Part shown: positions 42,862 through 57,913 of the stretch, piece after piece
Layout of the letters: every line of letters begins with the position of its first letter
How positions within the stretch are numbered: the first letter of the stretch is position 1
Assembly: GCA_964603655.1 (NCBI GenBank)
Contig: CAZRVZ010000045.1
Location: 790-64,789, forward strand
From: an uncultured Pseudobdellovibrionaceae bacterium
Lineage (GTDB): Bacteria; Bdellovibrionota; FAC87; UBA2466
Reading direction: 5' to 3'
DNA: 64,000 nt
Translations under genes and position numbers: made by a program
Notes under the pieces: model-generated
Seen by the model: only the letters and a program-made list of their open reading frames with translations
What the model was told of the DNA's origin: nothing
Databases searched by the model: none

Positions 42862-45800
42862 TTGATTCGCGTGCTTTGCACCTATCTGAGCGTCTTTTTG
42901 GCGATGCCTCCAAGCGTCTGGGCCGAACCATTCGATCAGATGACGCAGAAGGCACACATTGCGCAGTTGGAGAGCAAAGCGCCCAGCTGGAACGACGAAC
43001 GCCTCAAGGTATATCAGGCATTTCTGCTCGCATCCTGGAAGCTATCGGCTCTTTTGAGAGACCCACGCCTGGGAGCGATTGCGCTCATCCGGGAATCCGA
43101 AGATCGCGTCCTATTGTCAGCCTACAAAAATTGCCCAAGCCCGTGGAAAGAGGCGCCCGAATCATCTGAGATAAATTCAACCGTCACATCCCTCATTACA
43201 AATGTTCAAACGGCTCTGAATGCCCTATTCGAAAATCATGTTCTAGAAATTGGGTCCGTAGAGATCGAAACGGCTCCGGAAGGTCCACTCACGACACCGA
43301 CCGTGGAGTCGGATTTAAACGGAGCCATCTGCATTCCAGCCACTTTGATTTCTCATTCCTCAACTCACGATTCGCTGGACTCGCTTATCGCCTCAACCGA
43401 ATCAGCAATCCAGAGTGTTCAGAGGCCAATACACACACTGCTCCTGTCTAAAGTTACTCATGGTGGCATCGTAACCAATTTGGAAGTCCGTCGCTGGATA
43501 TCCTGGCTTGTGGGACTGCGGGAACTCTCGGCGCACACGATACATTTGCAGCCCAATTTGCCATCCAACGGTGGCGTTCAGGCGGCTCGTTTTTCAAAAA
43601 AGGTGGGGGACAAACTTTCCCTCGCGTATCGATCGGCAAAAAACACGCTGCTCACGCTGGGTGCTGCTAAAAATGACTTACCTCGATTTGAACCGTGTGT
43701 CGGTGAAAATCAAACGTCCGATTTCTTGTGCCTAATCGTGCCACCGCCTTCCGCCTTAGAGCAGGCTCGTGACAGGATCTTTCACCAGGCTCGGGAAAGG
43801 GCATACGACCACGGCAAAGGACTGGAGGCCATGCGTAGGTATAGCCTCATTATGAAGGGCGTTCCGGAACGCGCAGTCATCAGCCTTGCGCTCGGAAATG
43901 AAAACCCGGAGCTCAAACTTCCGGCATGCATGGGTTCGTCCGATGGGGCACTCATGCAGGATGTCTACCGCGAAAGCATTCAAACGGCCGCTAAATCGAG
44001 AGCAACCAATCAATTCCTCCAAGCGCTCGACCGAGTCAGCGCAAAGTATCGCGATAATTCCCTAGCACCACCAATCCCCAAAACGGACGAGATTTACACT
44101 GAAGGGCACACAATCGCGCTGTCCTTATTTATGACGGCTTTACAAAACCAACGTGAGGCTTCGGGTAGAGTGGCGAGCCATCTCGATACCTACAACTTTC
44201 GCGATTTTTTTCACAGCCAGCGGTTCTTAGATCAATTTCCCGACCATCTGAGTGGCAAACTAAAACTCACCCTCGCCTTTGTGAATGATGAGCTTTCTGA
44301 ACTAGCACCAGAACGGAGAACGGCCTTTCTCACTGGGCACATAACTGACACGATCCGTTATGTGCTGCACGACTCCCTGCTTAATTTTATTTTGGTAGTT
44401 GCAAGCGACCTCGGCATCGATGAGCAAGCAATAGCTGCAGAGTGGGAGCGCACGTTTGGTGCCCAATGGCAGTCCATTCTGGAGGATCCGCTGCTTCGGG
44501 CCGATATCTCTCAAATGGCGGAGACCGTGACCGCCCACATTAATACTAGTACGACGGCCCAACCGACCAACACGTTAGAGTGGTCGAATCAGAATCTTAG
44601 GACCTATGTGGACGCCCTTTCCGAGCAAGCGGTGCGGGCGGCCCACGCCGATGAAACCTACCGGTTCATGGAGAGTTTGTCTGAGTGGAAAAATGGCGGG
44701 GAGTCGGTCCTTTCCGGACCGCAGACCTATTATTGGAACCGCAGCGGCATTCACTTTTCACCGGTAGAGCTCAAACCCGAGCGCCCCAGCGATTATCGTC
44801 ACCTAAAGGAGCCCCTTAAATCCTTGGCCGAGGCTCACCGTAAAGCGCTGATCGACCGCCTTCAGTCGCAGGGATTTAACAATGAATTTGTACGGGCCCG
44901 ATTCGCTCTGCCCACGACGGATGCGCTAGCCGATCGTATCCTGGCCTATTTTGACCAGCTCGTCGCAGCGGACCCCAAGAAGTTTGAGGCCGACAGAATG
45001 CAGCAGAGGCAACAGGCATTTCAGCCATTACTAACCTGGCTCAACTCACCCCACGCGCGGGCTCAGTATGATGCCGCTGCCGGGCGGCTCTCTACCGAGA
45101 TTTTGGAGGCCGATTTGCGTCCATTCCTGGAGCAGGTTCCGAGCAGAGAATCGGCGCAATTCACAGCTTGGGAAGCTCAACTAAAGGCGGTTTTAAAGAC
45201 GATGTCGGACACCAAGACCTTTCGAACCCCTCCCGATACAGAAACCATTCTTAAGGTGAACAGTCGGTCCGACAACCGACTCCGCGAGTCGATTTCCAAT
45301 CTGCTCCGGGAAGTGACAGAACGAGGCTATTTTTCGGACCTGGAAACTGGGCTCCAAAAGTGCCTAAACGAACCCGAGAAATGCACGAGTCTACTAAAAT
45401 CAGTGCAGACTATTTTAACCAATCCCGCCCTAGAGCAATTGTACGAATGGCGGGTGATATCCCATTCGCTCAATCACGGTATTAATTTTCTGAATTACTT
45501 CGGGGCTGATGGAGACGTTTATGCCCCCCCACCCGTTGCGTCGCCTGTGCCAGAACTCGTGATATCGCTACGCGCAAAACTGAACGACATTTGGTTCGGT
45601 TTTCCTGGCTCGCCACCGAAGCATCCATCGGAGCATCCTTTGGGTCTGGCCAAGGAAGTTGATGCACTTTTAGTCGCCCTTTCCAAATCAGCACACGTGA
45701 ACCGGACTGGGGAATTGGATGGCTTTCACCAAAGTCTACTGGCGGACTTCCAACCGACAATTTCCAAAACCATTTCCGAAATGCACGCATTTCATCGTTG

Positions 45801-48800
45801 GCACGGTCATATTAAATCTTTGCTTCCGATGCTGACCGTTCCTGTCGATCGATTAACTCCGGCACTTTGGGAACAGGCAAGAACACTTATCCTAAACGAG
45901 CTTTCATACCTGCAGGGCGTTCGATTGCCGTTTTTAAACGCCCCCTCGGATTTGGACTCGTCACGAGCGCTGCTTCTCGATTTCTCGACCTATCGTAGTC
46001 GTCTTAATCATCTAGCCCGTATCGTGCTCAATCAGGGAACCGATCCGGCCGAGATTATTCACCAGGCCGAGGACGCACTCAGAGGTCTTCGCGCCATTAC
46101 CAAACCCACCGAGATGGTTCAACGCAGGATACGAATTCTGGGATCCCAGTTATCGGACGCCAAAAAGGACTTGTCAGCGTATTCAGAACTCCGGGGACTC
46201 GTTCGTCACTATATCCCCGCTCTCGCCGAGTCCAAGCAGGCTCTAACAATGGATATGGGCTCGCTCGGGCTCACCGAACGTTGGAATGCCTACTTCGAGG
46301 ATCAACTCCTCGACAAAAATGCTCGCGTCACGCTCAAGGATCTCAATTCATTGATCGCCAAATCGCAGTTCAATCAGCCAGTGGAACCACTTGACCCTCT
46401 GAATAAATCGACTATCGAAACCATTCTCAAGGATTCCATCAGTTATTTTACAAAGCTTCAGGCAGACCCGCTCACCGAGTCTTTTTTTCACCGTGAAGCC
46501 ATTCGTCATCGCATCCAAGGCCTCCCCGATTACACTTTAAGCCACGTACCTGGTAATATCGCTGGGCCTGCACTTTTTATGGCCGGGCTCAAGGTCGTCC
46601 ACGCGCGACTCATGCCGTATCTGATGCCTCGCGGATCGACGAATGAGGAGCTTTATCAGAAATTCGTTCGCGCCTCGGTTTCGACAGGGTCAGCGACTCA
46701 GTTAGATAATCTGATCGCCATCCTGCCCAGCCCCCGAGAGGTAACGACTTCGTTACTGTCTGAGGCGCAAGAAATCTTACGCGCTCTTAACGACAAAAAT
46801 GAATCGGCACAAACCAACTTCAGGGCATTTGCTCGCTCGCTCACCGATCTGAGTGCTTCGCGGCTGAGTACTCCGGAGCTGAGTACTCCGGAGCTGAGTG
46901 CTCCGGAGCTGAGTACTTCGGGGTTTGCTCCGTTCCTGGATTCTGAAGGAACCGAGGTTTCCATCAGCTCGACCGGACCCCACTCGGAGTTGGCGTTTCC
47001 TAAGGGTATAGATACTGAACTGTCGTTTCTTAATCGGGTCATTTCAAACCTATCAGTGAGTCATCGTTCGTCGCTACTGAGTCGGGCGGGGGTGGAAACT
47101 CCAGACACCAAATCTGCTGCAGAGCTACTCAATCGACTCAGTCCAAACGACAGGTCCCGCGTATACCGACACCTCTTGACCGAGGTGGAACGCAGTATTT
47201 CAACCCACGCGAGCATTTCTACAAACCCGGTTGCCAAGGCGCTATTTCCGCAGGGGGACACGCAAGAGACACTCAGCCCGACCTGGAACGCAGATTTGGA
47301 GCGGGCCATAGCCTTCTATGAAAAAAAGTCATCCCTACTACGCAAAGGGCAAACCCCAGCGTTGACTCGACTCATCGCCTTGACCCTTTTTGAGTACCTT
47401 GCACCCATTGGCTTTCGCTTCTCGGAAAAACAACTGGTCCAGAATGCTAAGATTCCAATCGATGTTAGTCGCGATCAATTGAGTCAAGCGCCGACTGCTG
47501 TTTTAAATCATTTTATTCAGGATGTCCGTTACCGCTACTATCAGGAGGTCGCTAGCAAGTCGGGGTTTTCAGCTTTTTCAAAAAGCACATCTATAGATGA
47601 TACGAATGACATTACGAAAATAGGTCCTGAAACCGCGACACTTCGTTTACTCTTGCGTCGCACTGTCATTCCACTGTCATATGCTCTCGCTGTTATTTCG
47701 GCTGAAAGTGAAGCTCTCTTACCCTTTTGGGCAAAGTGGAAACCCGGATCCACTAGTCACCTGGCGAAAGATTTTACAGAGTGGTTTTCTAAACTTGCAT
47801 CCTTAGATTCGCTCCGTTCGTCGTGGGGTCAACCCAATTCACGCGGCATTTCGAGTCGACACCCCAGTCTCTCGAGCTTTTCGAAGTCCAAAGAATATCG
47901 CCATCTCATGGTTCATCTGGTTTCGCTCGACGCCAATCAAACTGTTTCCGATGGGACGGGAAGTTATCCGGCACTTTTGGCTCAGCTCAATTGGAGCATC
48001 AACCGGAGTGGACGTACGTTCGATAGGACCGCGCGACCCATTCCAGCACCCCCGACCTTCAGAGAGCTAGACTACCTGGTCCGTCATCTCATCGACGTTA
48101 TTGGAATCGATCTCAAACGGTTCGATTCCTGGAGGCAGCTACTCGATACCCATCAAGGTGCTCCACCGGAATTGTGGGCACTGGCCTCGCGCAGTTTGCG
48201 CGATTCGATCTCGGAAGTTGGACAGGGTGGGTTTCTCGGCGTGAAGATTGCAGCACCACAGTCAGAAAGTCCACACACGCTTTTTGGAAACCATGGTTAT
48301 ATTCCGTATCCTGTCGTCAATGCGTCTGAGAGAGAACTATTTTGTGCCACTGACGACCTGACTGATTGGCTGGGTCGAGCCGAACAGCGGCTGCACCCCC
48401 CACACACCCAGTGGCTCAGATTTGAACGGGACGCATCCATATCCCAAAAGTCCCGGCTGGATAATGAAGTGCGGGGCCAAAAAGAGTACAGCCTCTATCA
48501 TGAGATTGCCCAGATAGAATCGGATGACATGGTGGGTCTTCAGGATACTATCGATGGAAACCCTACAATCAGAAATCGATTTCAATCGCGCTGGGATCGC
48601 TGGAATGCACTACCCTTTGGAACCGCAGTCTTGCCGGCAGTCGAACTCAACTCTTTGCAAGCACAGCTGGCCAAGGACAATATTTCCTCTAAGCAATCGG
48701 AACTCGAACGCATCTTCCGAGTACGCGAAGCATTGGTCGATTTTCGCCGCACGTTGAATGAAATCAATCTACAAGAAGGCGTCAACTGGTGGAGAGAGTC

Positions 48801-51800
48801 GCGCAATCTCTTCACGGGTGATCTCGAAAATCAATTGAATCTGGCGCTGGCGCAGTTTGGAAAACAGATCGCAACCGAAGGTTGGACCGACCGATTCCCC
48901 CGGTTCCCCCAGTTCCCAATGGCCGGTCGGAATTCAAAGGGAACCTTTGCCGAGCGCCGTCGAAGTAGTATCGGGAGCGCCATCTTTCACGCTTCGCGTG
49001 CGGTGCACGATACCTTGTATAAAGGTAGATCTCCGGAAGATACGGCTCGCGTTCGGAAGATTCTCGGCGTGATGGACACCCATTTCACGCGGTCGGTTGA
49101 AGTGGGGAGCGTTCGCAAAACTCTTGAAACCACGGCCAAGAATTTGGATGAAACCTTGGCTCGTCTTTGCCTGGCCGATTTTTCTGCCATTCATTCCAAT
49201 GATGACTTTAAACGCAGCAAAGATTCGATCCTCGCCTCCGGACTTCCATTCTTTGACAGTCACCAGCAACAACTTTTTACGGATTCTCAGATGCTTCCCA
49301 GCGGGTCACAGGAAACACACAATCGTCTCATCACCTTGTCACAGGAGATTTCCGATCGCGCAAAACTCATGAAAAACATCGAGTGGGGTTTTAACGCGCT
49401 GATGGTCGTTTCATTAGTAGCCCTTGTCGCTGGAAAGAGCTCACCTTCACTGTCCCACTGGGTTCTGGCAACGGGCGCAAGACGAACCACCGCTGCAGTC
49501 GCGGCCTCACTCGTTACGATCTTGTGGGTTGGCATCGAGGCGAATGGCTATGCCGAGGATTTCCACGTTGTCCCGCAGGATCTGCGCGATAAGCTCCACA
49601 TTCGCGACTCCCAATTCAGCGGGAACAACACCTTCCTTTCACCACAAAATGCTGCAGCCCTTTTTGATGCGATCCGCACCAACGACCAAGCCCAAGTAAG
49701 TGGGTTCCGATGGACATTCCGAGTTCTTGCCGCACTCGCCGGATTTCAACTTTTGCGTCCTTGGCTGAAAGCAGCACTCGGTGGTCCGGGTTATCTGCAG
49801 AAAGTAATCAGGCATGATTTCCGTGGCATTGCCAATTCCCGGCTGCGCCATGACCTACTCACATTAGGACAGGGCAAATTTCCCAACGCGATCGCTCACC
49901 TCGAACAGTTGAGTCCGATGGAGGCGCAAGAAAAGGTGGTAGGTGCGTACCTTGCGGAACTAGGTGCCACCCGAACAGGTTCGGGAGTCTACCGCATCTC
50001 TAACACCACCGCGCGCCGACTCTCGGAAGATGCCACTCGGCAGCTCAAGCAATTATCCAAACAATTGGGAATAGACCCTAATGATTTTGGGGCCCTCTCG
50101 GATGAATCCTTAAATTTACTGTCTCCTAAAAGGGTGATGGAGGAACGCGCAAAGTCTCTGCCGCGACTGAGAGATCTTCGTTATTGGGCTGGTCGTTTTT
50201 CAGGCAACACGACCTTTCACCAGGATGAACTAATGGATGGGGTTCTCGCCATCGTCGGCGTCCAGTCAAGTATCACGTCTCGCTATGTACCGCTCTGGCT
50301 TCGCTTTTTCGGGGTGGAATACCCGACTCCCACATCACTTTCACTCTCGAAACTTCAGCGCCTCAACCAGGCGCAGCTGGATATTTTGAGTTATTACCAC
50401 CCTCGCGTCAGATACGCCCTGGCTCAACTATCGGAGGCCTCTGGCCGAACTATTCAGCCCTGGGAAATTTTTGTGCCCTCCAAGATGGCGTCTTGGACAG
50501 CGCCCAAACCCATGCGCATGCTCCTTGGCTCTGTAAAAACTCGCGCCGTTTCGGCCTCCAATGCGTTTTTGGACAGAGCCCCGTATCTTTATGAATCCCC
50601 CGAATCACGGGCTCTGGTGTCACGACAACTCCAGCGGGAGGTATTTGAAACGGCTCTCCTGGAGACGGGAGAGTCCCCGATAGCCTCTTCACTACCGTCT
50701 GAAATCCTGGATCAGGCAGCGCGCTTACGATTGGAGTATGGACGTACTCGTTTTAATTTATTAGTCGAAGAGTATTTGATTGCCGAGGGGCTCTCGCTGC
50801 CATCACACGAAAAGACTCAGCTCGAGCTACTGGGCCAACTGGTGGGTTGGGATGCATCCGCTAGAGATCTGATCCTTATCCATATTCGGTCCAAAAACCC
50901 AAGGCAGTCGGTAACCGAAACTGACATCCAGGAAGTCATCGTCGCAATGATAGACCCCAAACACCCCCGGTTTGCCGAACTGAATCGAGTGCTCCCAAAA
51001 ACCGAATCGGAGTTTCACCCTGGTACGGATGCTCCTTTTACAGAAACCGATTTGATTGATGGCCCGCTCGATCTTTCCGAGCACGCGCTAAAGCTCCGCA
51101 CTATTTTAAAAGATTATCATCCCGACACGCGCCTGCTTCAGGCCATCGCGCGATCGGACTACTCCCAAATGGCGTCAGCCCTCACGGCAAGGAGAGTTGC
51201 TCAGTTTACATCTCAAACCATGGGGACACCGGACGCAGCGGCAGATACAATGGCGGAACCAGGTGGTGAGGGCTCGCCGCGAGAACCAGAGTCACCAGTC
51301 CGACCAAGCGTCCGCCCTGCACCCAAACCGAAAATGGATCTGGCATCGATTCCCCCGCCAAGAAACGAAGCCGAGATACTTAAAGAGCGTCTGGCTGATT
51401 TGGAAAAAGGAATCCTCCCAACCGATGTGCGCGAACCGCATCGTTTGATTTCAAAGCACAATCTATTTCAAGTAGTCGATAGAACTCTACTGGTCGCACA
51501 CGCACCCAGTCACAAGAACCACATCGTAATCAACCTTTTCGCTGAGGGTGTTAGACCAGAAGGAATCGATTCGGCGCTGGGGGAATTGATAACTCACGGT
51601 CTGGCTACCGACGAAATCATCGCGGCCTATCGATACGCGTCTGATAGTCTACGCACTTTGGAGATAATAGCCCAAGCTACGGAAGCTGGAGTGGTTCAGC
51701 CATCCGAGAAGACACAACTCTTCGAGTGGTGTGTAAAGATGTACCTCGGACACCCGGAAAAATTGGCCGCGCGCGCGATGACCCCCAGCGAGTCGGCTTC

Positions 51801-53409
51801 AATACTTGGCCTTTCCGCTTTGCGTGCCCCTCAATACTCCGCCCAGACCGTGAACTTGGCCGCGGAGAAAGCAGCGGGTCGCCAAATAAATCAATCTTTT
51901 ACCCGACAGGCCAGCCGGGCCTTCGAGCTTACGCGCGACGGACAGATTCAGTCGCTACGGGATATCTCGGATGCCCTTCATTTTCCATTAGAATATTTCG
52001 ACCGCCCCGAGCTCGTGACCGGTGTACTCCACAGAATTGTTTCCTACAACGCTCGGGCGGAGCGCACATTAGCTAAACTTTATCAGGGTGCGTTCCACGA
52101 CTCGGTCGAAGATGCCCGTGTGGCACTGGTACTAGCTGATTCAAAAACTGCCAACATTACAGCCCGAATTACCGACCGGATTCGAACCTTACGTGAAGAG
52201 ATTTCGGGACGAATAGAGTTGTCCGAAAATCGGGCCATCCACGAAGAGGCTATCCGACGCCTTGAGAGAGCTCAGCACATTCTGGAATCCCCAGAAGGGA
52301 CTTTTCCGGCAAAGTACATTGCACCTAAAGTGTTTCCAGACGTTCCTCGCTCGCTCACAATATCCGAATCCTCTGCCGAAACTACTGAGTTGTTTAATAC
52401 CCATTGGGAAAACCTCATGAAAACACTGCCTGCCGAGAGACAGGCAGAACTGGGGCCACTCCTCGGTGCACTTCCAACCCAGAGTCTCAGTGGCGCTCGG
52501 CGCAATTTGTGGAAAGCGCTCGGGGCACAGCAGTTCGCTTTCGGCTCGCCGGAGCACCACCTTCAACGCAAAGCGCTTCGGCTTATTCATTCCCACTTTC
52601 TTGTCGAACAGGCAAAGCAGACCGGCTGCGTAGTAACCGATGCAGAGGTGACTTCCCTCTTTGATTCGCTGGTCCGCCACTATGTTGAGAGGGATTCCAT
52701 CCATTTTGAATTGTCAGTCGATGAAGCTGAGATTCTGATCTCGGCCAGTACCCGCTTGCGCACATCCCAGCTGGAATTTGGCAAAAATCATGAGCGCCTC
52801 GAGGAATTTTGGAAGGCACTCTCACTAGAGGGGCATTTAATAGGAAAGGGCGAAGGAAATATTTCCCAAGCACTGCACGACCAGCTCGCCCTTGCGGCGG
52901 AAACGGTCAAGGCAACACTGTATCCCGGCAAAGAGCTGTCTATTCGCCATTTCGGTTATTATGATTTGGAAACGCTCTTTCTGAGTAGCTATTCTCGTTT
53001 GCCGCTCGAGGTAGTGATCGAACCGGAGATTTTAGCCAATCGGAAACTAGTTTATCTGTTCCTGGACGGACCGGGAGTAAAGCGAGCATCGGAATTAAAG
53101 ACGAAAGGTGATTGGGTCATCGAACTCTTCACCGATGGCGCTCCATTTTCCGAAAAATTAGCCGAGACCGCCGAGTATCAGCTCGCTCAATACGAAATCT
53201 GGCGACGGCTTAAGTGGAATGCAGATCTTCCCCCGGGGCCGGCCAGAGACCGAGGTCAACAGATCCTGGAGCACGCGCTAGGCCGATTTGGCGCGTCTCC
53301 AAAGGTGGAACCCTCACTTCCAAAACTCGAGCGGCCACGACGAATTATCGTCCCCTCGGAGAATACACCCAAACCTCAGCGGCTGATTTTACCGAAGGAT
53401 TTTCAATAA
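42862..53409 (+). CDS. giant secreted hypothetical protein (3515 aa)
   Basis: Uninterrupted 10.5-kb ORF. Signal peptide MIRVLCTYLSVFLAMPPSVWA. Predominantly helical composition. Internal TM-hairpin-like pair near aa 2170-2230. A 15-bp repeat encodes STPELSTPELSAPELS. Preceded by a 247-bp AT-rich promoter region. Confidence 0.7.
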   Translation: MIRVLCTYLSVFLAMPPSVWAEPFDQMTQKAHIAQLESKAPSWNDERLKVYQAFLLASWKLSALLRDPRLGAIALIRESEDRVLLSAYKNCPSPWKEAPESSEINSTVTSLITNVQTALNALFENHVLEIGSVEIETAPEGPLTTPTVESDLNGAICIPATLISHSSTHDSLDSLIASTESAIQSVQRPIHTLLLSKVTHGGIVTNLEVRRWISWLVGLRELSAHTIHLQPNLPSNGGVQAARFSKKVGDKLSLAYRSAKNTLLTLGAAKNDLPRFEPCVGENQTSDFLCLIVPPPSALEQARDRIFHQARERAYDHGKGLEAMRRYSLIMKGVPERAVISLALGNENPELKLPACMGSSDGALMQDVYRESIQTAAKSRATNQFLQALDRVSAKYRDNSLAPPIPKTDEIYTEGHTIALSLFMTALQNQREASGRVASHLDTYNFRDFFHSQRFLDQFPDHLSGKLKLTLAFVNDELSELAPERRTAFLTGHITDTIRYVLHDSLLNFILVVASDLGIDEQAIAAEWERTFGAQWQSILEDPLLRADISQMAETVTAHINTSTTAQPTNTLEWSNQNLRTYVDALSEQAVRAAHADETYRFMESLSEWKNGGESVLSGPQTYYWNRSGIHFSPVELKPERPSDYRHLKEPLKSLAEAHRKALIDRLQSQGFNNEFVRARFALPTTDALADRILAYFDQLVAADPKKFEADRMQQRQQAFQPLLTWLNSPHARAQYDAAAGRLSTEILEADLRPFLEQVPSRESAQFTAWEAQLKAVLKTMSDTKTFRTPPDTETILKVNSRSDNRLRESISNLLREVTERGYFSDLETGLQKCLNEPEKCTSLLKSVQTILTNPALEQLYEWRVISHSLNHGINFLNYFGADGDVYAPPPVASPVPELVISLRAKLNDIWFGFPGSPPKHPSEHPLGLAKEVDALLVALSKSAHVNRTGELDGFHQSLLADFQPTISKTISEMHAFHRWHGHIKSLLPMLTVPVDRLTPALWEQARTLILNELSYLQGVRLPFLNAPSDLDSSRALLLDFSTYRSRLNHLARIVLNQGTDPAEIIHQAEDALRGLRAITKPTEMVQRRIRILGSQLSDAKKDLSAYSELRGLVRHYIPALAESKQALTMDMGSLGLTERWNAYFEDQLLDKNARVTLKDLNSLIAKSQFNQPVEPLDPLNKSTIETILKDSISYFTKLQADPLTESFFHREAIRHRIQGLPDYTLSHVPGNIAGPALFMAGLKVVHARLMPYLMPRGSTNEELYQKFVRASVSTGSATQLDNLIAILPSPREVTTSLLSEAQEILRALNDKNESAQTNFRAFARSLTDLSASRLSTPELSTPELSAPELSTSGFAPFLDSEGTEVSISSTGPHSELAFPKGIDTELSFLNRVISNLSVSHRSSLLSRAGVETPDTKSAAELLNRLSPNDRSRVYRHLLTEVERSISTHASISTNPVAKALFPQGDTQETLSPTWNADLERAIAFYEKKSSLLRKGQTPALTRLIALTLFEYLAPIGFRFSEKQLVQNAKIPIDVSRDQLSQAPTAVLNHFIQDVRYRYYQEVASKSGFSAFSKSTSIDDTNDITKIGPETATLRLLLRRTVIPLSYALAVISAESEALLPFWAKWKPGSTSHLAKDFTEWFSKLASLDSLRSSWGQPNSRGISSRHPSLSSFSKSKEYRHLMVHLVSLDANQTVSDGTGSYPALLAQLNWSINRSGRTFDRTARPIPAPPTFRELDYLVRHLIDVIGIDLKRFDSWRQLLDTHQGAPPELWALASRSLRDSISEVGQGGFLGVKIAAPQSESPHTLFGNHGYIPYPVVNASERELFCATDDLTDWLGRAEQRLHPPHTQWLRFERDASISQKSRLDNEVRGQKEYSLYHEIAQIESDDMVGLQDTIDGNPTIRNRFQSRWDRWNALPFGTAVLPAVELNSLQAQLAKDNISSKQSELERIFRVREALVDFRRTLNEINLQEGVNWWRESRNLFTGDLENQLNLALAQFGKQIATEGWTDRFPRFPQFPMAGRNSKGTFAERRRSSIGSAIFHASRAVHDTLYKGRSPEDTARVRKILGVMDTHFTRSVEVGSVRKTLETTAKNLDETLARLCLADFSAIHSNDDFKRSKDSILASGLPFFDSHQQQLFTDSQMLPSGSQETHNRLITLSQEISDRAKLMKNIEWGFNALMVVSLVALVAGKSSPSLSHWVLATGARRTTAAVAASLVTILWVGIEANGYAEDFHVVPQDLRDKLHIRDSQFSGNNTFLSPQNAAALFDAIRTNDQAQVSGFRWTFRVLAALAGFQLLRPWLKAALGGPGYLQKVIRHDFRGIANSRLRHDLLTLGQGKFPNAIAHLEQLSPMEAQEKVVGAYLAELGATRTGSGVYRISNTTARRLSEDATRQLKQLSKQLGIDPNDFGALSDESLNLLSPKRVMEERAKSLPRLRDLRYWAGRFSGNTTFHQDELMDGVLAIVGVQSSITSRYVPLWLRFFGVEYPTPTSLSLSKLQRLNQAQLDILSYYHPRVRYALAQLSEASGRTIQPWEIFVPSKMASWTAPKPMRMLLGSVKTRAVSASNAFLDRAPYLYESPESRALVSRQLQREVFETALLETGESPIASSLPSEILDQAARLRLEYGRTRFNLLVEEYLIAEGLSLPSHEKTQLELLGQLVGWDASARDLILIHIRSKNPRQSVTETDIQEVIVAMIDPKHPRFAELNRVLPKTESEFHPGTDAPFTETDLIDGPLDLSEHALKLRTILKDYHPDTRLLQAIARSDYSQMASALTARRVAQFTSQTMGTPDAAADTMAEPGGEGSPREPESPVRPSVRPAPKPKMDLASIPPPRNEAEILKERLADLEKGILPTDVREPHRLISKHNLFQVVDRTLLVAHAPSHKNHIVINLFAEGVRPEGIDSALGELITHGLATDEIIAAYRYASDSLRTLEIIAQATEAGVVQPSEKTQLFEWCVKMYLGHPEKLAARAMTPSESASILGLSALRAPQYSAQTVNLAAEKAAGRQINQSFTRQASRAFELTRDGQIQSLRDISDALHFPLEYFDRPELVTGVLHRIVSYNARAERTLAKLYQGAFHDSVEDARVALVLADSKTANITARITDRIRTLREEISGRIELSENRAIHEEAIRRLERAQHILESPEGTFPAKYIAPKVFPDVPRSLTISESSAETTELFNTHWENLMKTLPAERQAELGPLLGALPTQSLSGARRNLWKALGAQQFAFGSPEHHLQRKALRLIHSHFLVEQAKQTGCVVTDAEVTSLFDSLVRHYVERDSIHFELSVDEAEILISASTRLRTSQLEFGKNHERLEEFWKALSLEGHLIGKGEGNISQALHDQLALAAETVKATLYPGKELSIRHFGYYDLETLFLSSYSRLPLEVVIEPEILANRKLVYLFLDGPGVKRASELKTKGDWVIELFTDGAPFSEKLAETAEYQLAQYEIWRRLKWNADLPPGPARDRGQQILEHALGRFGASPKVEPSLPKLERPRRIIVPSENTPKPQRLILPKDFQ
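46864..46920. repeat. 15-bp tandem repeat (about 3.7 copies, gagctgagtactccg) inside the giant gene
   Basis: Direct repeats seen in the sequence. They encode (STPEL)n. Confidence 0.75.
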
Positions 53410-53717: not shown

Positions 53718-53805
53718 TGAATTGGTGAATTGGTACCAGGTACCTTTCAGGACTGCATTATTTAACACAGTCCTGAAAGGTACCTGGTACCAATTCACCA
53801 ATTCA
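53718..53805. repeat. perfect 38-bp inverted repeat (12-nt loop), hairpin/cruciform and likely bidirectional terminator
   Basis: tgaattggtgaattggtaccaggtacctttcaggactg ...cattatttaaca... cagtcctgaaaggtacctggtaccaattcaccaattca. It abuts the ppsR stop. A T-run (cttttt) follows 14 nt downstream on the plus strand. Confidence 0.8.
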
Positions 53806-53810
53806 CTAAT

Positions 53811-54641
53811 TCACCTCACTTTTTCGGGGAAACTATTGCGAATTACCTTCTCGACTTCGGCGGCAGTTTCCTCAAGTGCTTTTCCGGTAACATCGAACAC
53901 AGGCCAACGGCGATTCTTCTTAAATACCTCTTTGCAATATTCGATCTCTTCCACTACATGGTCCAAATTCGCGTACTTGGCCTCTGGGTCCTCGCCCATC
54001 TTTACCAAGCGCTCTCGGCGAATGCGCACCAGCGTATTGGCGTCGATGATAAGGCCGACCACCTTTTTTTGATCGATCTGGCCTAACGCCTCGGGTAGCG
54101 GAATTCCGTTCACTAACGGAACATTGGCGACCTTCCACCCTTTGTAGGACAGGTAGATGGAAAGTGGAGTCTTACTCGTCCGGGAAAGCCCTACCAAAAC
54201 AATATCGGCGGCCTGAAGGTTATCGGGATATCTGCCATCGTCGTGTTTTACGGTGAACTCGATGGCCTCAATTCGTCTGAAATAGTACTCGTTCACCTGA
54301 TGAAAAAGCCCCGGCTGAGAGTAGGGATCCTTTGTGAGATAGCGGCCGAGCACCTCAAGCACCGGCCCCAGAAGATCGACGCTGGGAACTCCTGATTGAG
54401 AGGACAATCCCGCGATAAATGTTCTTAAGGAATCGGAAACCACCGTATACACGATGATCGCCTTGGTCTGGTGAGCCTCTTCAAAAATGCTGGCAACCTG
54501 AGCCTCGGTTCGGATGTTCTTGTACCTGGCAATTTTTAGGCCTTCGCGCACATACTGCACCAGAGCCGCCTTAATCATCTGATCGGCTGTTTCGCCGGTA
54601 CCGTCGGACAGAACAAATACCGTAAGTCCTTCACTCATCAT
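53811..54641 (-). CDS. ppsR: PEP synthetase/pyruvate-phosphate dikinase regulatory protein (PSRP, DUF299)
   Basis: FVLSDGTGETA N-terminus and the P-loop-like GLSRTSKTPLS, typical of the kinase/pyrophosphorylase YdiA family. Confidence 0.8.
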   Translation of the reverse strand: MMSEGLTVFVLSDGTGETADQMIKAALVQYVREGLKIARYKNIRTEAQVASIFEEAHQTKAIIVYTVVSDSLRTFIAGLSSQSGVPSVDLLGPVLEVLGRYLTKDPYSQPGLFHQVNEYYFRRIEAIEFTVKHDDGRYPDNLQAADIVLVGLSRTSKTPLSIYLSYKGWKVANVPLVNGIPLPEALGQIDQKKVVGLIIDANTLVRIRRERLVKMGEDPEAKYANLDHVVEEIEYCKEVFKKNRRWPVFDVTGKALEETAAEVEKVIRNSFPEKVR

Positions 54642-55600
54642 TCACACTCACCATTCACACTCATACTGGCATACTCATACTGGAGCCTCTCGCCCCTGGC
54701 AAAACGAATCGCCTCGCTTATACAAATTGCAGACATTCTCGAACGCGCGCTCAAAGTGGCCGACCCAATATGCGGAAGACACAAAGCGTTTGGCATCTGA
54801 GTCAGCGCTCTTTCAATATGCGGTTCAAACTCATACACATCCAGTCCAGCATAGAAAGTAGGCATCTTTTTCAAATGCGCTGCCAGCGCTCGCTCGTCGA
54901 CAATAGGACCGCGCGCCGCATTAATCAAGATCGCCCGGGGATTCATAATTCTGAGCTCCTTGGCGCCAATATAATGATGGGTCGACGCGTTGAGGGGGCA
55001 GTGAATCGATACAATATCACTTTCTTTCAATAGTTTTTCCTTGGAAATGTGCCGATAACGACACCGCTGCTTAGGGCCCGTGTAGAAAACTTCGGCACCA
55101 AATGCCTCAAGCCGTCTGGCAACTGCCCTTCCGATACGCCCTAAACCCACTAGCCCGACAGTCGCCCCTTGAAGTTCTACACCTAAGAAATCATTCGGAC
55201 CGAATCCCACGAACTTTCTATCGCCTGTTAGCCGCATCGCCGCCGGCAATCGACGAGCACACGCCAGAATCAACGTCAGGGTCAAATCGGCCGTCGCATC
55301 GGTCAGGACATTGGGGGTGTACGTGAGTCGGATTCCACGCCGCTTAAGCAGCGCGACGTCAATGTGGTCCAAACCAACGGAAAACGAAAAAATTGCTTTG
55401 AGTCGATTGGCCGATGCGATGGCCTTCGAATCAATTCGATCGGTAACCGTAACAACAGCTGTATCGGCGGTGTTTAAGAGCGCCCTGAGCTCGAGAGATG
55501 AAAGCGGCCGACCCTTCTCCACCTCGACAACCTTGTCATAATAGGGTGCCAACTGAATTATGGGCTCCGCCGGGAATTTTCGCGATAACACGATTCGCAT
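54638..55600 (-). CDS. D-isomer-specific 2-hydroxyacid dehydrogenase (glyoxylate/hydroxypyruvate reductase-like)
   Basis: NAD-binding GLVGLGRIGRAVARRLEAFG. Catalytic R...E...H pattern. Confidence 0.8.
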   Translation of the reverse strand: MRIVLSRKFPAEPIIQLAPYYDKVVEVEKGRPLSSLELRALLNTADTAVVTVTDRIDSKAIASANRLKAIFSFSVGLDHIDVALLKRRGIRLTYTPNVLTDATADLTLTLILACARRLPAAMRLTGDRKFVGFGPNDFLGVELQGATVGLVGLGRIGRAVARRLEAFGAEVFYTGPKQRCRYRHISKEKLLKESDIVSIHCPLNASTHHYIGAKELRIMNPRAILINAARGPIVDERALAAHLKKMPTFYAGLDVYEFEPHIERALTQMPNALCLPHIGSATLSARSRMSAICISEAIRFARGERLQYEYASMSVNGECE

Positions 55601-55611
55601 GGGTTCACGGA

Positions 55612-56868
55612 TTAACGTTTGAGTTGATTGGCATCGGAGCGCATGATCTTAATTCTAAACCAGGTACCGTCCTCTAGGAACTTGGTTTCGAGTACCTTCG
55701 ATATCTCATAGATACGCGACTGCAACTCAGAGTCACGATAGGGAACCACAAACTCCATTTCGATCATATCGCGCTCAAAAAAACCGTAAATCGCGTCCCG
55801 CAGGCGTTTCATATCCTCCGGCGAAAAAGATGAAACGGCGAGACTGTCGATATACTTTCGCTCAACTATTTTAGGAAGAAAAATGTCCTTAACCTTATCG
55901 GCCTTATTGAACACCAGAAATCCAGGCTTTTCTCCGGCACCAATTTCAGCTAGTACCTCTTCCGTCACCGCCATCTGTTCTTTAAAACATGACGCAGAGA
56001 GATCGACGACATGTAGCAGAATATCGGCGTCGATCACCTCGGCAAGAGTTGATTTAAATGAGGCGACTAGGGAATGCGGCAATTTCTTGATAAAACCGAC
56101 GGTATCGCTTAGCAAAATGGGCGGACGCGTTTTCGGATCAATAACTCTAACGGTCGAATCCAGTGTCGCAAATAATCTGTCGTCGACGTAAACCTCTCCG
56201 ACCGTCAATCGATTCATGAGAGTCGATTTTCCGGCGTTGGTGTAGCCAACGATAGCGACTCTGAGAAACCTGTCGCGGTGGTGGCGCTGAACCGCTCTTT
56301 GCTCCGAGAGCGTTTCCAGTTCTCCCTTCAGTCTGGCGATTCTGGAGCGGACCTGGCGCCGATCGAGCTCAATTTGACGCTCCCCCACGCCACGCAGTCC
56401 GATTCCGCCCCGTTGCCGTTCCAGATGGGTCCAGCGGCGGGACAAATGCGTGGATAGATATTCCAAGGTAGCCATTTCGACCTGCGTTTTAGCCTCCCTG
56501 GTCCTCGCATGCTTGGAAAATATGTCCAGAATAATGCCGGTGCGATCGATAACTCGGCATTCGGTTCCGTTCTCGAAGTTCTTCTGCTGAGTTCCGCTGA
56601 GCTCACCGTCAAAAACCACAAGATTAGCATTGTTCTGGGTAATGGCTTCCAGGATCTCAGCAACTTTACCCGAGCCGACATAGGTCGAGGGGTCTGGTCG
56701 ATTCCGCTTTTGGATAAACCGCGCGATAACCTTTCCACCGACCGTCTGTACCAGGCGCTCGAGCTCCTCCAGACTGTTAGCTACCTCATCATCGGTCTGT
56801 TCAGGGAATTGAACGGCGACAGCGATGGCGCGCTCCTCTTCGACATTTTGACGATATCTTTGCTTCAT
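55612..56868 (-). CDS. hflX: GTPase HflX
   Basis: HflX N-domain plus G domain (AIVGYTNAGKSTLMNRLT, DTVGF, NKAD). Likely start is MKQRYRQN at 56868, not the upstream in-frame ATG at 56955. Confidence 0.85.
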   Translation of the reverse strand: MKQRYRQNVEEERAIAVAVQFPEQTDDEVANSLEELERLVQTVGGKVIARFIQKRNRPDPSTYVGSGKVAEILEAITQNNANLVVFDGELSGTQQKNFENGTECRVIDRTGIILDIFSKHARTREAKTQVEMATLEYLSTHLSRRWTHLERQRGGIGLRGVGERQIELDRRQVRSRIARLKGELETLSEQRAVQRHHRDRFLRVAIVGYTNAGKSTLMNRLTVGEVYVDDRLFATLDSTVRVIDPKTRPPILLSDTVGFIKKLPHSLVASFKSTLAEVIDADILLHVVDLSASCFKEQMAVTEEVLAEIGAGEKPGFLVFNKADKVKDIFLPKIVERKYIDSLAVSSFSPEDMKRLRDAIYGFFERDMIEMEFVVPYRDSELQSRIYEISKVLETKFLEDGTWFRIKIMRSDANQLKR

Positions 56869-56871
56869 TAA

Positions 56872-57053
56872 GGGCTCGCCCAAAAATAACTTTACATTTT
56901 GGCGCGCAGATTGGGGGCAGATTTGGACGAGCCGATTGAACGAAACGGGAAGCATACCTCAGGCGGTATGTTAAGCGTTTCGTGAAAGAGGGTCGTTCAA
57001 AGATGGCTCCAAGATGCGATGTCCAAAATGTAAAGTTATTCTTGGGCTAGCCC
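56872..57053. repeat. 182-bp imperfect palindromic element with 31-bp terminal inverted repeats (MITE-like or structured sRNA locus)
   Basis: gggctcgcccaaaaataactttacattttgg (56872-56902) pairs with its reverse complement at 57023-57053, with 2 mismatches. Nested inner IRs acgaaacg/cgtttcgt and catacc/ggtatg share one symmetry centre at 56961.5. Confidence 0.6.
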
Positions 57054-57086
57054 TAAGGCAATGTTTCAATCACGCTATAAAACAAT

Positions 57087-57491
57087 CTACGATTCATTAA
57101 CGTGGACTAACGCCGAAACCAAGGATAACTCCGTTTTAAATAATAACGACCGAATACCCTCCAGTGCTTGGGAATTCTCGGACATGAACAATAGTTTTTT
57201 CCACTCGTTTTTCACTGCGGACGCAGCTACGAGTTCGATTCCCAACGCCGGAGCCTCCCCAATCTTCTCCAGACACAGCAGCGCAAATGGCAATCGCCGC
57301 ATCGTAGGCACAAACACAGGACCTGCATCACCATTCATCACAAAGCGCGATAGCGTGCCGCCCATCTGCCAATCGATCAGGTGCAGATCTCTTCCATGAA
57401 TGGGGAGACTTCCTACGCGACGCGTAAATCCGATCCATACGCAGTCCCACGCGGTTAGAAGAGAATCTCTCTCGAGAGAATCAACTTTCAC
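57087..57491 (-). CDS. hypothetical protein
   Basis: 134-aa ORF co-directional with nusB and hflX. Preferred over the overlapping plus-strand 112-aa low-complexity ORF. Confidence 0.3.
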   Translation of the reverse strand: MKVDSLERDSLLTAWDCVWIGFTRRVGSLPIHGRDLHLIDWQMGGTLSRFVMNGDAGPVFVPTMRRLPFALLCLEKIGEAPALGIELVAASAVKNEWKKLLFMSENSQALEGIRSLLFKTELSLVSALVHVNES

Positions 57492-57913
57492 GGCACCTTG
57501 TTGGGTTGCGGGTGTTTGAGGCGAACAGAATCTAATACTGCGTTGACGAATTTCGGTGTATCCACCTCGCCGAAACTTTTGGAAAGCTCTATCATTTCAT
57601 TAATGGTAACCGCGGCTGGTATATCATCGCAATACAGAATCTCAAAGACTCCAAGTCTTAAGATATTGCGATCGACTCGGGCCATTCTATCCACTCTCCA
57701 CCCAGTCGCTGCGCCATTGATAATTTCATCGACGGCCTTTACGTTCTCAACAACACAGGCGATCAGCCGTTCCACAAAGCTCGTCTCAGCCCCGTGCGTG
57801 TCGAAGTTAAGCCTAAAATATTCAAGGCCGGTCTGAACCGTCAGCTCCTGACTATCAAGTTGGTAAAGAACCTGCAGTACCTGCGAACGACTTGTGTGGC
57901 GAGTGCTTTTCAC
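57488..57913 (-). CDS. nusB: transcription antitermination factor NusB
   Basis: [20 protein letters not shown]...[29 protein letters not shown]. Confidence 0.8.

Follow-up and report, generated by a model that had tools for sequence, protein, structure and literature searches.

The hflX locus and its palindrome

In the window, by which we mean the whole 64-kb stretch of DNA analysed, nusB, a small 134-aa open reading frame (ORF134) and hflX follow one another on the minus strand, and a 182-bp palindrome lies between the last two. The features of this interval, in order of coordinate, are:

55612-56868, minus strand: hflX, 418 aa, with Pfam domains GTP-bdg_N, GTP-bdg_M and MMR_HSR1 (record P0003)
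56869-56871: TAA (TTA on the minus strand), read as a target-site duplication and abutting the hflX ATG (from the sequence; matching flanks in the family)
56872-57053, minus strand (invariant 18-mer / CATC-repeat end first): very probable MITE, 182 bp, non-autonomous and non-coding (family profile match)
56872-56902: terminal inverted repeat adjoining hflX, GGGCTCGCCCAAAAATAACTTTACATTTTGG (repeat search; terminus common to about 45 genome and at least 120 metagenome loci)
56905-57018: inner imperfect palindrome, 54-nt arms and 6-nt loop, with subterminal CATC/GATG-type repeats (repeat search, folding)
57023-57053: terminal inverted repeat adjoining ORF134, reverse complement GGGCTAGCCCAAGAATAACTTTACATTTTGG (repeat search)
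57054-57056: TAA, second copy of the target-site duplication (from the sequence)
57087-57491, minus strand: ORF134, small protein, conserved and lineage-specific; 4-nt overlap between its start and the nusB stop
57488-57913, minus strand: nusB (Pfam NusB, 1.3e-32)

The recorded 418-aa protein P0003 (100% identity and coverage) starts at ATG 56868-56866 (minus strand), and the conserved HflX N-terminus, RYRQN..EEER, begins three residues past this codon; the palindrome does lie directly 5' of hflX, as an earlier note on this DNA had it. The hflX frame also extends 29 codons into the element (56869-56955, minus), as far as an ATG at 56955 near the hairpin tip, yielding a 447-aa ORF that exists only because that frame meets no stop in the palindrome. 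An N-terminally extended HflX of this length is conceivable but unlikely, since GAGG stands only 1 nt before ATG 56955 and the recorded protein is of 418 aa; annotation should mark the palindrome as a repeat or mobile element, the 447-aa extension of hflX not being credible.

The long imperfect palindrome is real. A repeat search of the window returned outer arms of 32 nt at 56871-56902 and 57023-57054, 94% complementary, the terminal inverted repeats of the element being 31/32 nt with 2 mismatches, and inner arms of 54 nt each at 56905-56958 and 56965-57018, 70% complementary and separated by a 6-nt loop. The single symmetry centre previously ascribed to it was essentially right, the centres of the outer and inner arms falling at 56962.5 and 56961.5, one base apart. 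Each strand folds into one long hairpin, the plus at -113.5 kcal/mol (z -14.4) and the minus at -89.2 kcal/mol (z -11.3), and none of 200 shuffles folded as well. In the 64-kb window the 18-nt core of these terminal repeats, AATAACTTTACATTTTGG, is present at just two sites, the two ends of the element, against a chance expectation of 0.01.

What the earlier note had missed is a direct repeat of TAA, at 56869-56871 and 57054-57056, that brackets the element at 56872-57053. On the minus strand the sequence reads ...CATTGCC TTA, then the element itself (GGGCTAGCCC...GGGCGAGCCC), then TTA ATG AAG... Terminal inverted repeats with a 3-bp direct duplication are the signature of cut-and-paste transposon insertion, and we therefore read the element as an insertion. 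MITEs are 50-500 bp long and are mobilised in trans (PMC10969869); at 182 bp the element falls inside this range, and it holds neither a transposase gene nor, by the ORF list, any ORF of 50 aa or more wholly within it. A scan of 56500-57500 revealed no sigma-70-like promoter in or around the element and no terminator at it; a U-tract after the hairpin is absent on either strand.

Empty sites in relatives and the question of hfq

Three related lineages (L087/88/89, from GCA_016196825.1, a 'Deltaproteobacteria bacterium' MAG; L090; and L094) encode HflX proteins 76-78% identical to that of the window and keep the gene order acpP-fabF-rpiB-glyA-nusB-ORF~130-hflX. In none of the three is there a palindrome between ORF~130 and hflX: the spacer is -11 to +19 nt, the ORF~130 stop overlapping the hflX ATG in L087 and L094 and lying 19 nt before hflX in L090. 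This synteny without the element makes them empty sites. In the window the spacer between ORF134 and hflX is now 218 nt, and taking out the element with one TTA leaves about 33 nt, of the same order as in the relatives; the sequence that natively preceded position -3 of hflX has been displaced 185 nt upstream. Two other assemblies of this species (L091 and L093) also have the element, and in both the contig stops inside it; since nowhere in the element are 31 consecutive nt self-complementary, the breaks may point to additional copies in those samples, a hint that is suggestive only.

The earlier note had offered two possibilities, a MITE-like insertion or a structured sRNA or leader, and the empty sites bear on both. 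A cis-regulatory leader, attenuator or riboswitch-like structure specific to this locus and controlling hflX would suit a very stable hairpin placed immediately 5' of the gene with its base 3 nt from the AUG. But that structure is missing at the same position in the three related lineages, it is bounded by a target-site duplication, it has homologues along its entire length among repeats dispersed through unrelated contexts, and it has neither a U-tract after the hairpin on either strand nor a match in Rfam; we accord this explanation a very small probability. The Rfam scan, run at E values up to 10 for the window copy and at gathering scores for 16 family loci, returned two chance-level matches only for the former and tRNAs only for the latter. 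A conserved single-copy regulatory RNA at this locus is thus refuted by its absence from three lineages and from Rfam, and the MITE stands, on the terminal inverted repeats, the 3-bp duplication, the full-length homology to a multi-copy family and the empty sites in relatives. We are confident that the 182-bp palindrome is a MITE, inserted at TTA directly before the hflX start, and neither a substitute for hfq nor a conserved leader. Only this species has the insertion, which lies 3 bases ahead of the hflX start codon and is an event of an ordinary kind.

In many Proteobacteria hfq is linked to hflX. This linkage, and nothing else, speaks for the palindrome being the remnant of, or the replacement for, a lost hfq gene, and the locus had indeed been described as one where hfq would be expected. 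That expectation fails in this lineage: the relatives without the element have ORF~130 abutting or overlapping hflX and no hfq there, so that there was never room for the gene and none is to be expected here. The accompanying statement that no Hfq-like ORF lies between nusB and hflX is correct, Pfam detecting no Hfq/Sm domain there or elsewhere in the window and tblastn of three Hfq sequences against the window giving a best E of 1.2. With no Hfq similarity in the window, and with the element's sequence being that of a mobile family, the probability of an hfq remnant or replacement is vanishingly small; the striking palindrome is, we are confident, selfish DNA, neither the missing hfq nor a new riboregulator.

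ORF134 had been set down as belonging to no recognisable family. As regards sequence libraries this is so, for neither a Pfam family nor a PDB entry matches it by sequence, but it is a conserved gene: its counterparts between nusB and hflX in the relatives share 41% and 31% identity with it, and in a set of 1.84 billion proteins its homologues make up 36 representative clusters. AlphaFold, given 30 homologues, returned a confident model (pLDDT 87, pTM 0.83); the natural structures that resemble it most are macrodomains (DarG, PARP9, PARP14, TTHA0132) and the leucine aminopeptidase N-domain, at TM 0.60-0.66. ORF134 is accordingly predicted to be a conserved small protein with an alpha/beta macrodomain-like fold, not an Sm protein, and the model suggests that it may represent an unannotated macrodomain-like family linked to hflX. 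The idea that it is a hidden Hfq was ruled out by the fold prediction and fold search.

A dispersed family of related elements

Genomes, one per species, were scanned for the exact 18-mer core, which matched at 86 loci; about 45 of these have the extended terminus, TWA followed by GGGCnCnCnCAAAAATAACTTTACATTTTGG, and GGGCnCnCnCAAAAATAACTTTACATTTTGG is the start of hundreds of 150-200-bp non-coding elements in other genomes. The hosts are Desulfobacula, other Desulfobacterota, Pseudomonadales, Lentisphaeria, Terriglobia, Holosporales and Saprospiraceae MAGs, with copies on up to 7 contigs per Desulfobacula MAG; contig ends hold several family copies, as with assembly-breaking repeats. A metagenome scan gave at least 120 loci with the terminus. 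The family is abundant (on at least about 70 contigs from one metagenome sample among the matches listed), breaks assemblies and crosses phyla. The check for other copies that the earlier note had suggested thus finds them dispersed in other genomes and metagenomes, with one copy in the 64-kb window. One MITE copy is present in the plasmid collection, on a Desulfosarcina BuS5 plasmid and with no transposase nearby; viral contigs yielded 10 chance matches to the 18-mer and no family members.

An inverted partner terminus was located for 26 genome copies. They measure 126-306 bp, mostly 155-189 bp, apart from one 669-bp derivative, and lengths in the family cluster at 157, 179 and 202-203 bp (179 and 202-203 for metagenome copies). 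The same triplet, TTA or TAA, stands on both flanks in 20 of the 26, where chance would give 1/64, and matching TWA flanks are found in most metagenome copies bounded at both ends; both TTA and TAA flanks occur with the same element orientation, in genome and metagenome copies alike. Beyond the triplet the flanks are mutually unrelated in both sets of loci, and the position is intergenic in 36 of the 39 family copies with enough flank.

The window copy belongs squarely in this company. A nhmmer profile of more than 60 family members has a single match in the window, 56872-57053, at E 1.2e-25 on the minus strand and 1e-21 on the plus. Identity is 76% globally, over the whole length, with a 178-bp copy in L152, and about 70% with the abundant 179-bp subfamily; other subfamilies have the same hairpin architecture with different sequence. 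Arms of the window copy's exact type had no matches in the JGI metagenome scan. Neither Rfam nor a 2024 review of prokaryotic MITEs has an entry for the family, and a literature search on the repeat sequence itself and on bacterial MITEs with TTA/TAA duplications brought no match. The MITE family with GGGCnCnCnCAAAAATAACTTTACATTTTGG termini seems to be undescribed and unnamed, and a proper description of it, including its transposase and the strand bias set out below, would enrich the catalogues of bacterial mobile elements in a modest but useful way.

Some copies depart from the common form. The 669-bp member (L079 4856-5524) has good termini and TTA/TTA flanks and contains a 122-aa ORF (MKKPNFNYDEVSDTLYVSFEPGEK...), so that here the MITE transports a passenger gene. 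In L010, L175, L159, L127 and L150 there are TWA-flanked 'micro' derivatives of 40-70 bp, in which one terminal repeat is folded back on the ~10 nt at its own outer end; deletions may have produced them, or they may be footprints of excision. Four copies (L118, L123, L160, L173) have TTA on one flank and TAA on the other, as is expected in a few copies from recombination between copies in opposite target orientations. Copies of the 179-bp subfamily in L105, L113 and L186 are broken about 130-330 nt in by a second repeat (…CCATAAATAGGGATTTTTGTT.AAGATCAAG…CCATTTATGGATGGACAC), which suggests that in that metagenome a further small mobile element sits within the MITE.

The family can be set beside the known small palindromic repeats of bacteria. 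Membership of the Correia, ERIC or RUP families is ruled out by the 3-bp duplication, with TTA and TAA in both orientations, and the window element presumably bears no sequence resemblance to the consensus sequences of these three. Correia elements of Neisseria (CREE/NEMIS) are likewise bacterial MITEs, of 100-160 bp with terminal repeats of about 26 nt, often beside gene starts and co-transcribed, and their RNA hairpin is a substrate of RNase III and can change the expression of neighbouring genes (PMC2649163, PMC10969869). They differ in being of unrelated sequence, in duplicating TA where the window family duplicates TWA, and in being confined to Neisseria; their effects on expression are measured, whereas that of the window element is inferred. 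The ERIC/IRU elements of enterobacteria are also imperfect palindromes (about 127 bp), intergenic and transcribed, with orientation-dependent RNA effects (PMC10969869), but they too are unrelated in sequence and duplicate TA, and they belong to one family of Gammaproteobacteria while the window family spans several phyla. REPINs and REP-BIME are similar as short intergenic palindromic repeats in many copies (PMC3116915); they are moved by the Y1 enzyme RAYT and lack long terminal repeats and target duplication, and the TWA duplication of the window family, in both orientations, argues against such a mechanism.

More generally, movement of the hairpin as single-stranded DNA by an HUH/Y1 enzyme, whether as an IS200/IS605-derived PATE, a REPIN moved by RAYT or an integron attC site, would be in keeping with an imperfect palindrome that folds better on one strand. 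Such elements, however, have no long terminal inverted repeats or target duplication and take one orientation relative to a short target motif, whereas here an identical triplet stands on both sides, and for a given orientation of the element it may be either TTA or TAA, which excludes insertion in the strand-specific manner of IS200/IS605 elements or REPINs; there is also no attC core (GTTRRRY) at the ends and no cassette context. We regard movement of this sort as highly improbable.

Mobility, strand-specific folding and possible consequences for hflX

TWA is the duplication triplet of IS5 and PIF/Harbinger elements, and Tourist-like elements have GGGC... termini and subterminal repeats, whose resemblance to the GGGC/GGCC ends and CATC repeats of the window family is a lead, not a test. 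Tourist-like MITEs (PIF/Harbinger, e.g. mPing) and the IS5 family (IS1031, ISL2 and IS427 groups) are like the window family in small size and lack of coding capacity, and the 3-bp duplications and AT-rich targets of PIF/Harbinger and IS5 elements match its TTA/TAA duplication and AT-rich target (PMC4122938; PMC12730594). The window family differs in being found in bacteria and in that the whole element, not just its ends, forms one hairpin. To judge from the sequence, the element is probably moved by a transposase of the IS5/PIF-Harbinger type, the one feature from which we draw this assignment being the 3-bp TWA duplication. A DDE transposase of this kind, supplied in trans, would bind the conserved termini and make 3-bp staggered cuts at TWA targets; the non-coding 182-bp element would then have inserted at TTA before the hflX ATG, duplicating the triplet. 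A TA duplication of IS630/mariner type with an extra terminal base was ruled out by the occurrence of TTA and TAA in the same element orientation.

Membership of the IS5/Harbinger group is that of a candidate, no transposase gene of this type, or of any other, being found flanked by the family's termini, either in the 1.16 Mb of sequence surrounding family copies or in the plasmid collection. The search for autonomous elements, which in the 1.16 Mb sought fuzzy inverted partners at 300-4000 bp and TWA-flanked GG... inverted repeats at 600-3500 bp, returned just the 669-bp L079 derivative with its 122-aa passenger ORF. Long copies that had appeared unpartnered proved to be truncated or interrupted by another repeat, and L021 was a false lead.

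The two strands of the element are not equivalent in folding. In 38 of 39 metagenome copies the strand opposite to the 18-mer orientation is the more stably folded (mean -82.1 versus -59.6 kcal/mol), with an advantage of about 20 kcal/mol and more G.U pairs, and the same bias is present in most genome copies, including subfamilies with interiors that no longer align. At the window the better-folding strand is the plus, antisense to the operon and hflX. Both-side changes that preserve the pair are seen at 20 of 35 consensus pairs. This family-wide bias is not predicted by a plain cut-and-paste model. Selection of the better-folding strand within host mRNAs was considered and dropped, since a crude neighbour-gene test gave no bias in the orientation of elements relative to flanking genes (8 versus 9 co-directional).

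One explanation, compatible with the element being a MITE, is that the family bears a functional single-stranded structure on one strand, an element-borne sRNA or an ssDNA intermediate, the window copy being a mobile RNA gene or structured module read from the plus strand. The bias in metagenome and genome copies alike, the excess of G.U pairs, the pair-keeping double changes and the better folding of the plus strand in the window are all in its favour. Yet neither the window copy nor the 16 family loci match Rfam, no sigma-70-like promoter lies in or around the window copy, and orientation relative to flanking genes is unbiased; a transposase binding both ends would likewise maintain compensatory change, and copies inherit the bias of their master copies and hence are not independent observations. 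We think it unlikely that the family bears such a structure. A broader proposition, that these elements form a cross-phylum superfamily of undescribed Tourist-like bacterial MITEs, with an 18-nt core invariant from Bacteroidota through Acidobacteriota to Desulfobacterota and the whole hairpin kept foldable on one strand, is speculative and, in our view, unlikely. If it were true, foldability on one strand would imply a strand-specific step, either an element-encoded structured RNA or an ssDNA stage, which would lie outside the textbook cut-and-paste model for IS5/Harbinger elements.

For hflX itself the MITE insertion may have consequences. A nusB-ORF134-hflX transcript would carry a hairpin of about -89 kcal/mol with its base 3 nt before the hflX AUG, which should hinder ribosome access to hflX and break any coupling to ORF134. 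At the hairpin base, the 31-bp near-perfect duplex would be offered to RNase III, making a possible processing site; in Correia elements RNase III cuts at the terminal repeats (PMC10969869). Lowered initiation of translation and such a processing site are proposed by analogy with Correia elements and ERIC (PMC10969869, PMC2649163), and the expression of hflX would more probably have been lowered or altered than helped. With a MITE 3 nt from the start codon of an operon gene for a ribosome-associated GTPase, the locus is a clean natural case that could serve to test how such hairpins affect translation.

Three other features of the neighbourhood deserve mention. Between hflX and the kinase/pyrophosphorylase gene (53811-54641, minus) this species has a D-2-hydroxyacid dehydrogenase gene (54638-55600, minus); in L087, L090 and L094 it is missing, and hflX directly adjoins the kinase/pyrophosphorylase gene. 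A second, unrelated palindrome of 88 nt lies at 53718-53805, starting 5 nt downstream of the kinase/pyrophosphorylase stop; its 43-nt arms are 95% complementary (-70/-75 kcal/mol), and the palindrome includes tandem GAATTGGT units. It has no T-run and no obvious target duplication, and no other copy of it occurs in the window or in the other loci analysed; the Logan contig L091 ends at its centre. On the plus strand, 42862-53409 is a giant ORF of 3515 aa, and in the relatives a gene of comparable size (3379 aa) lies close to this locus, on its other side.
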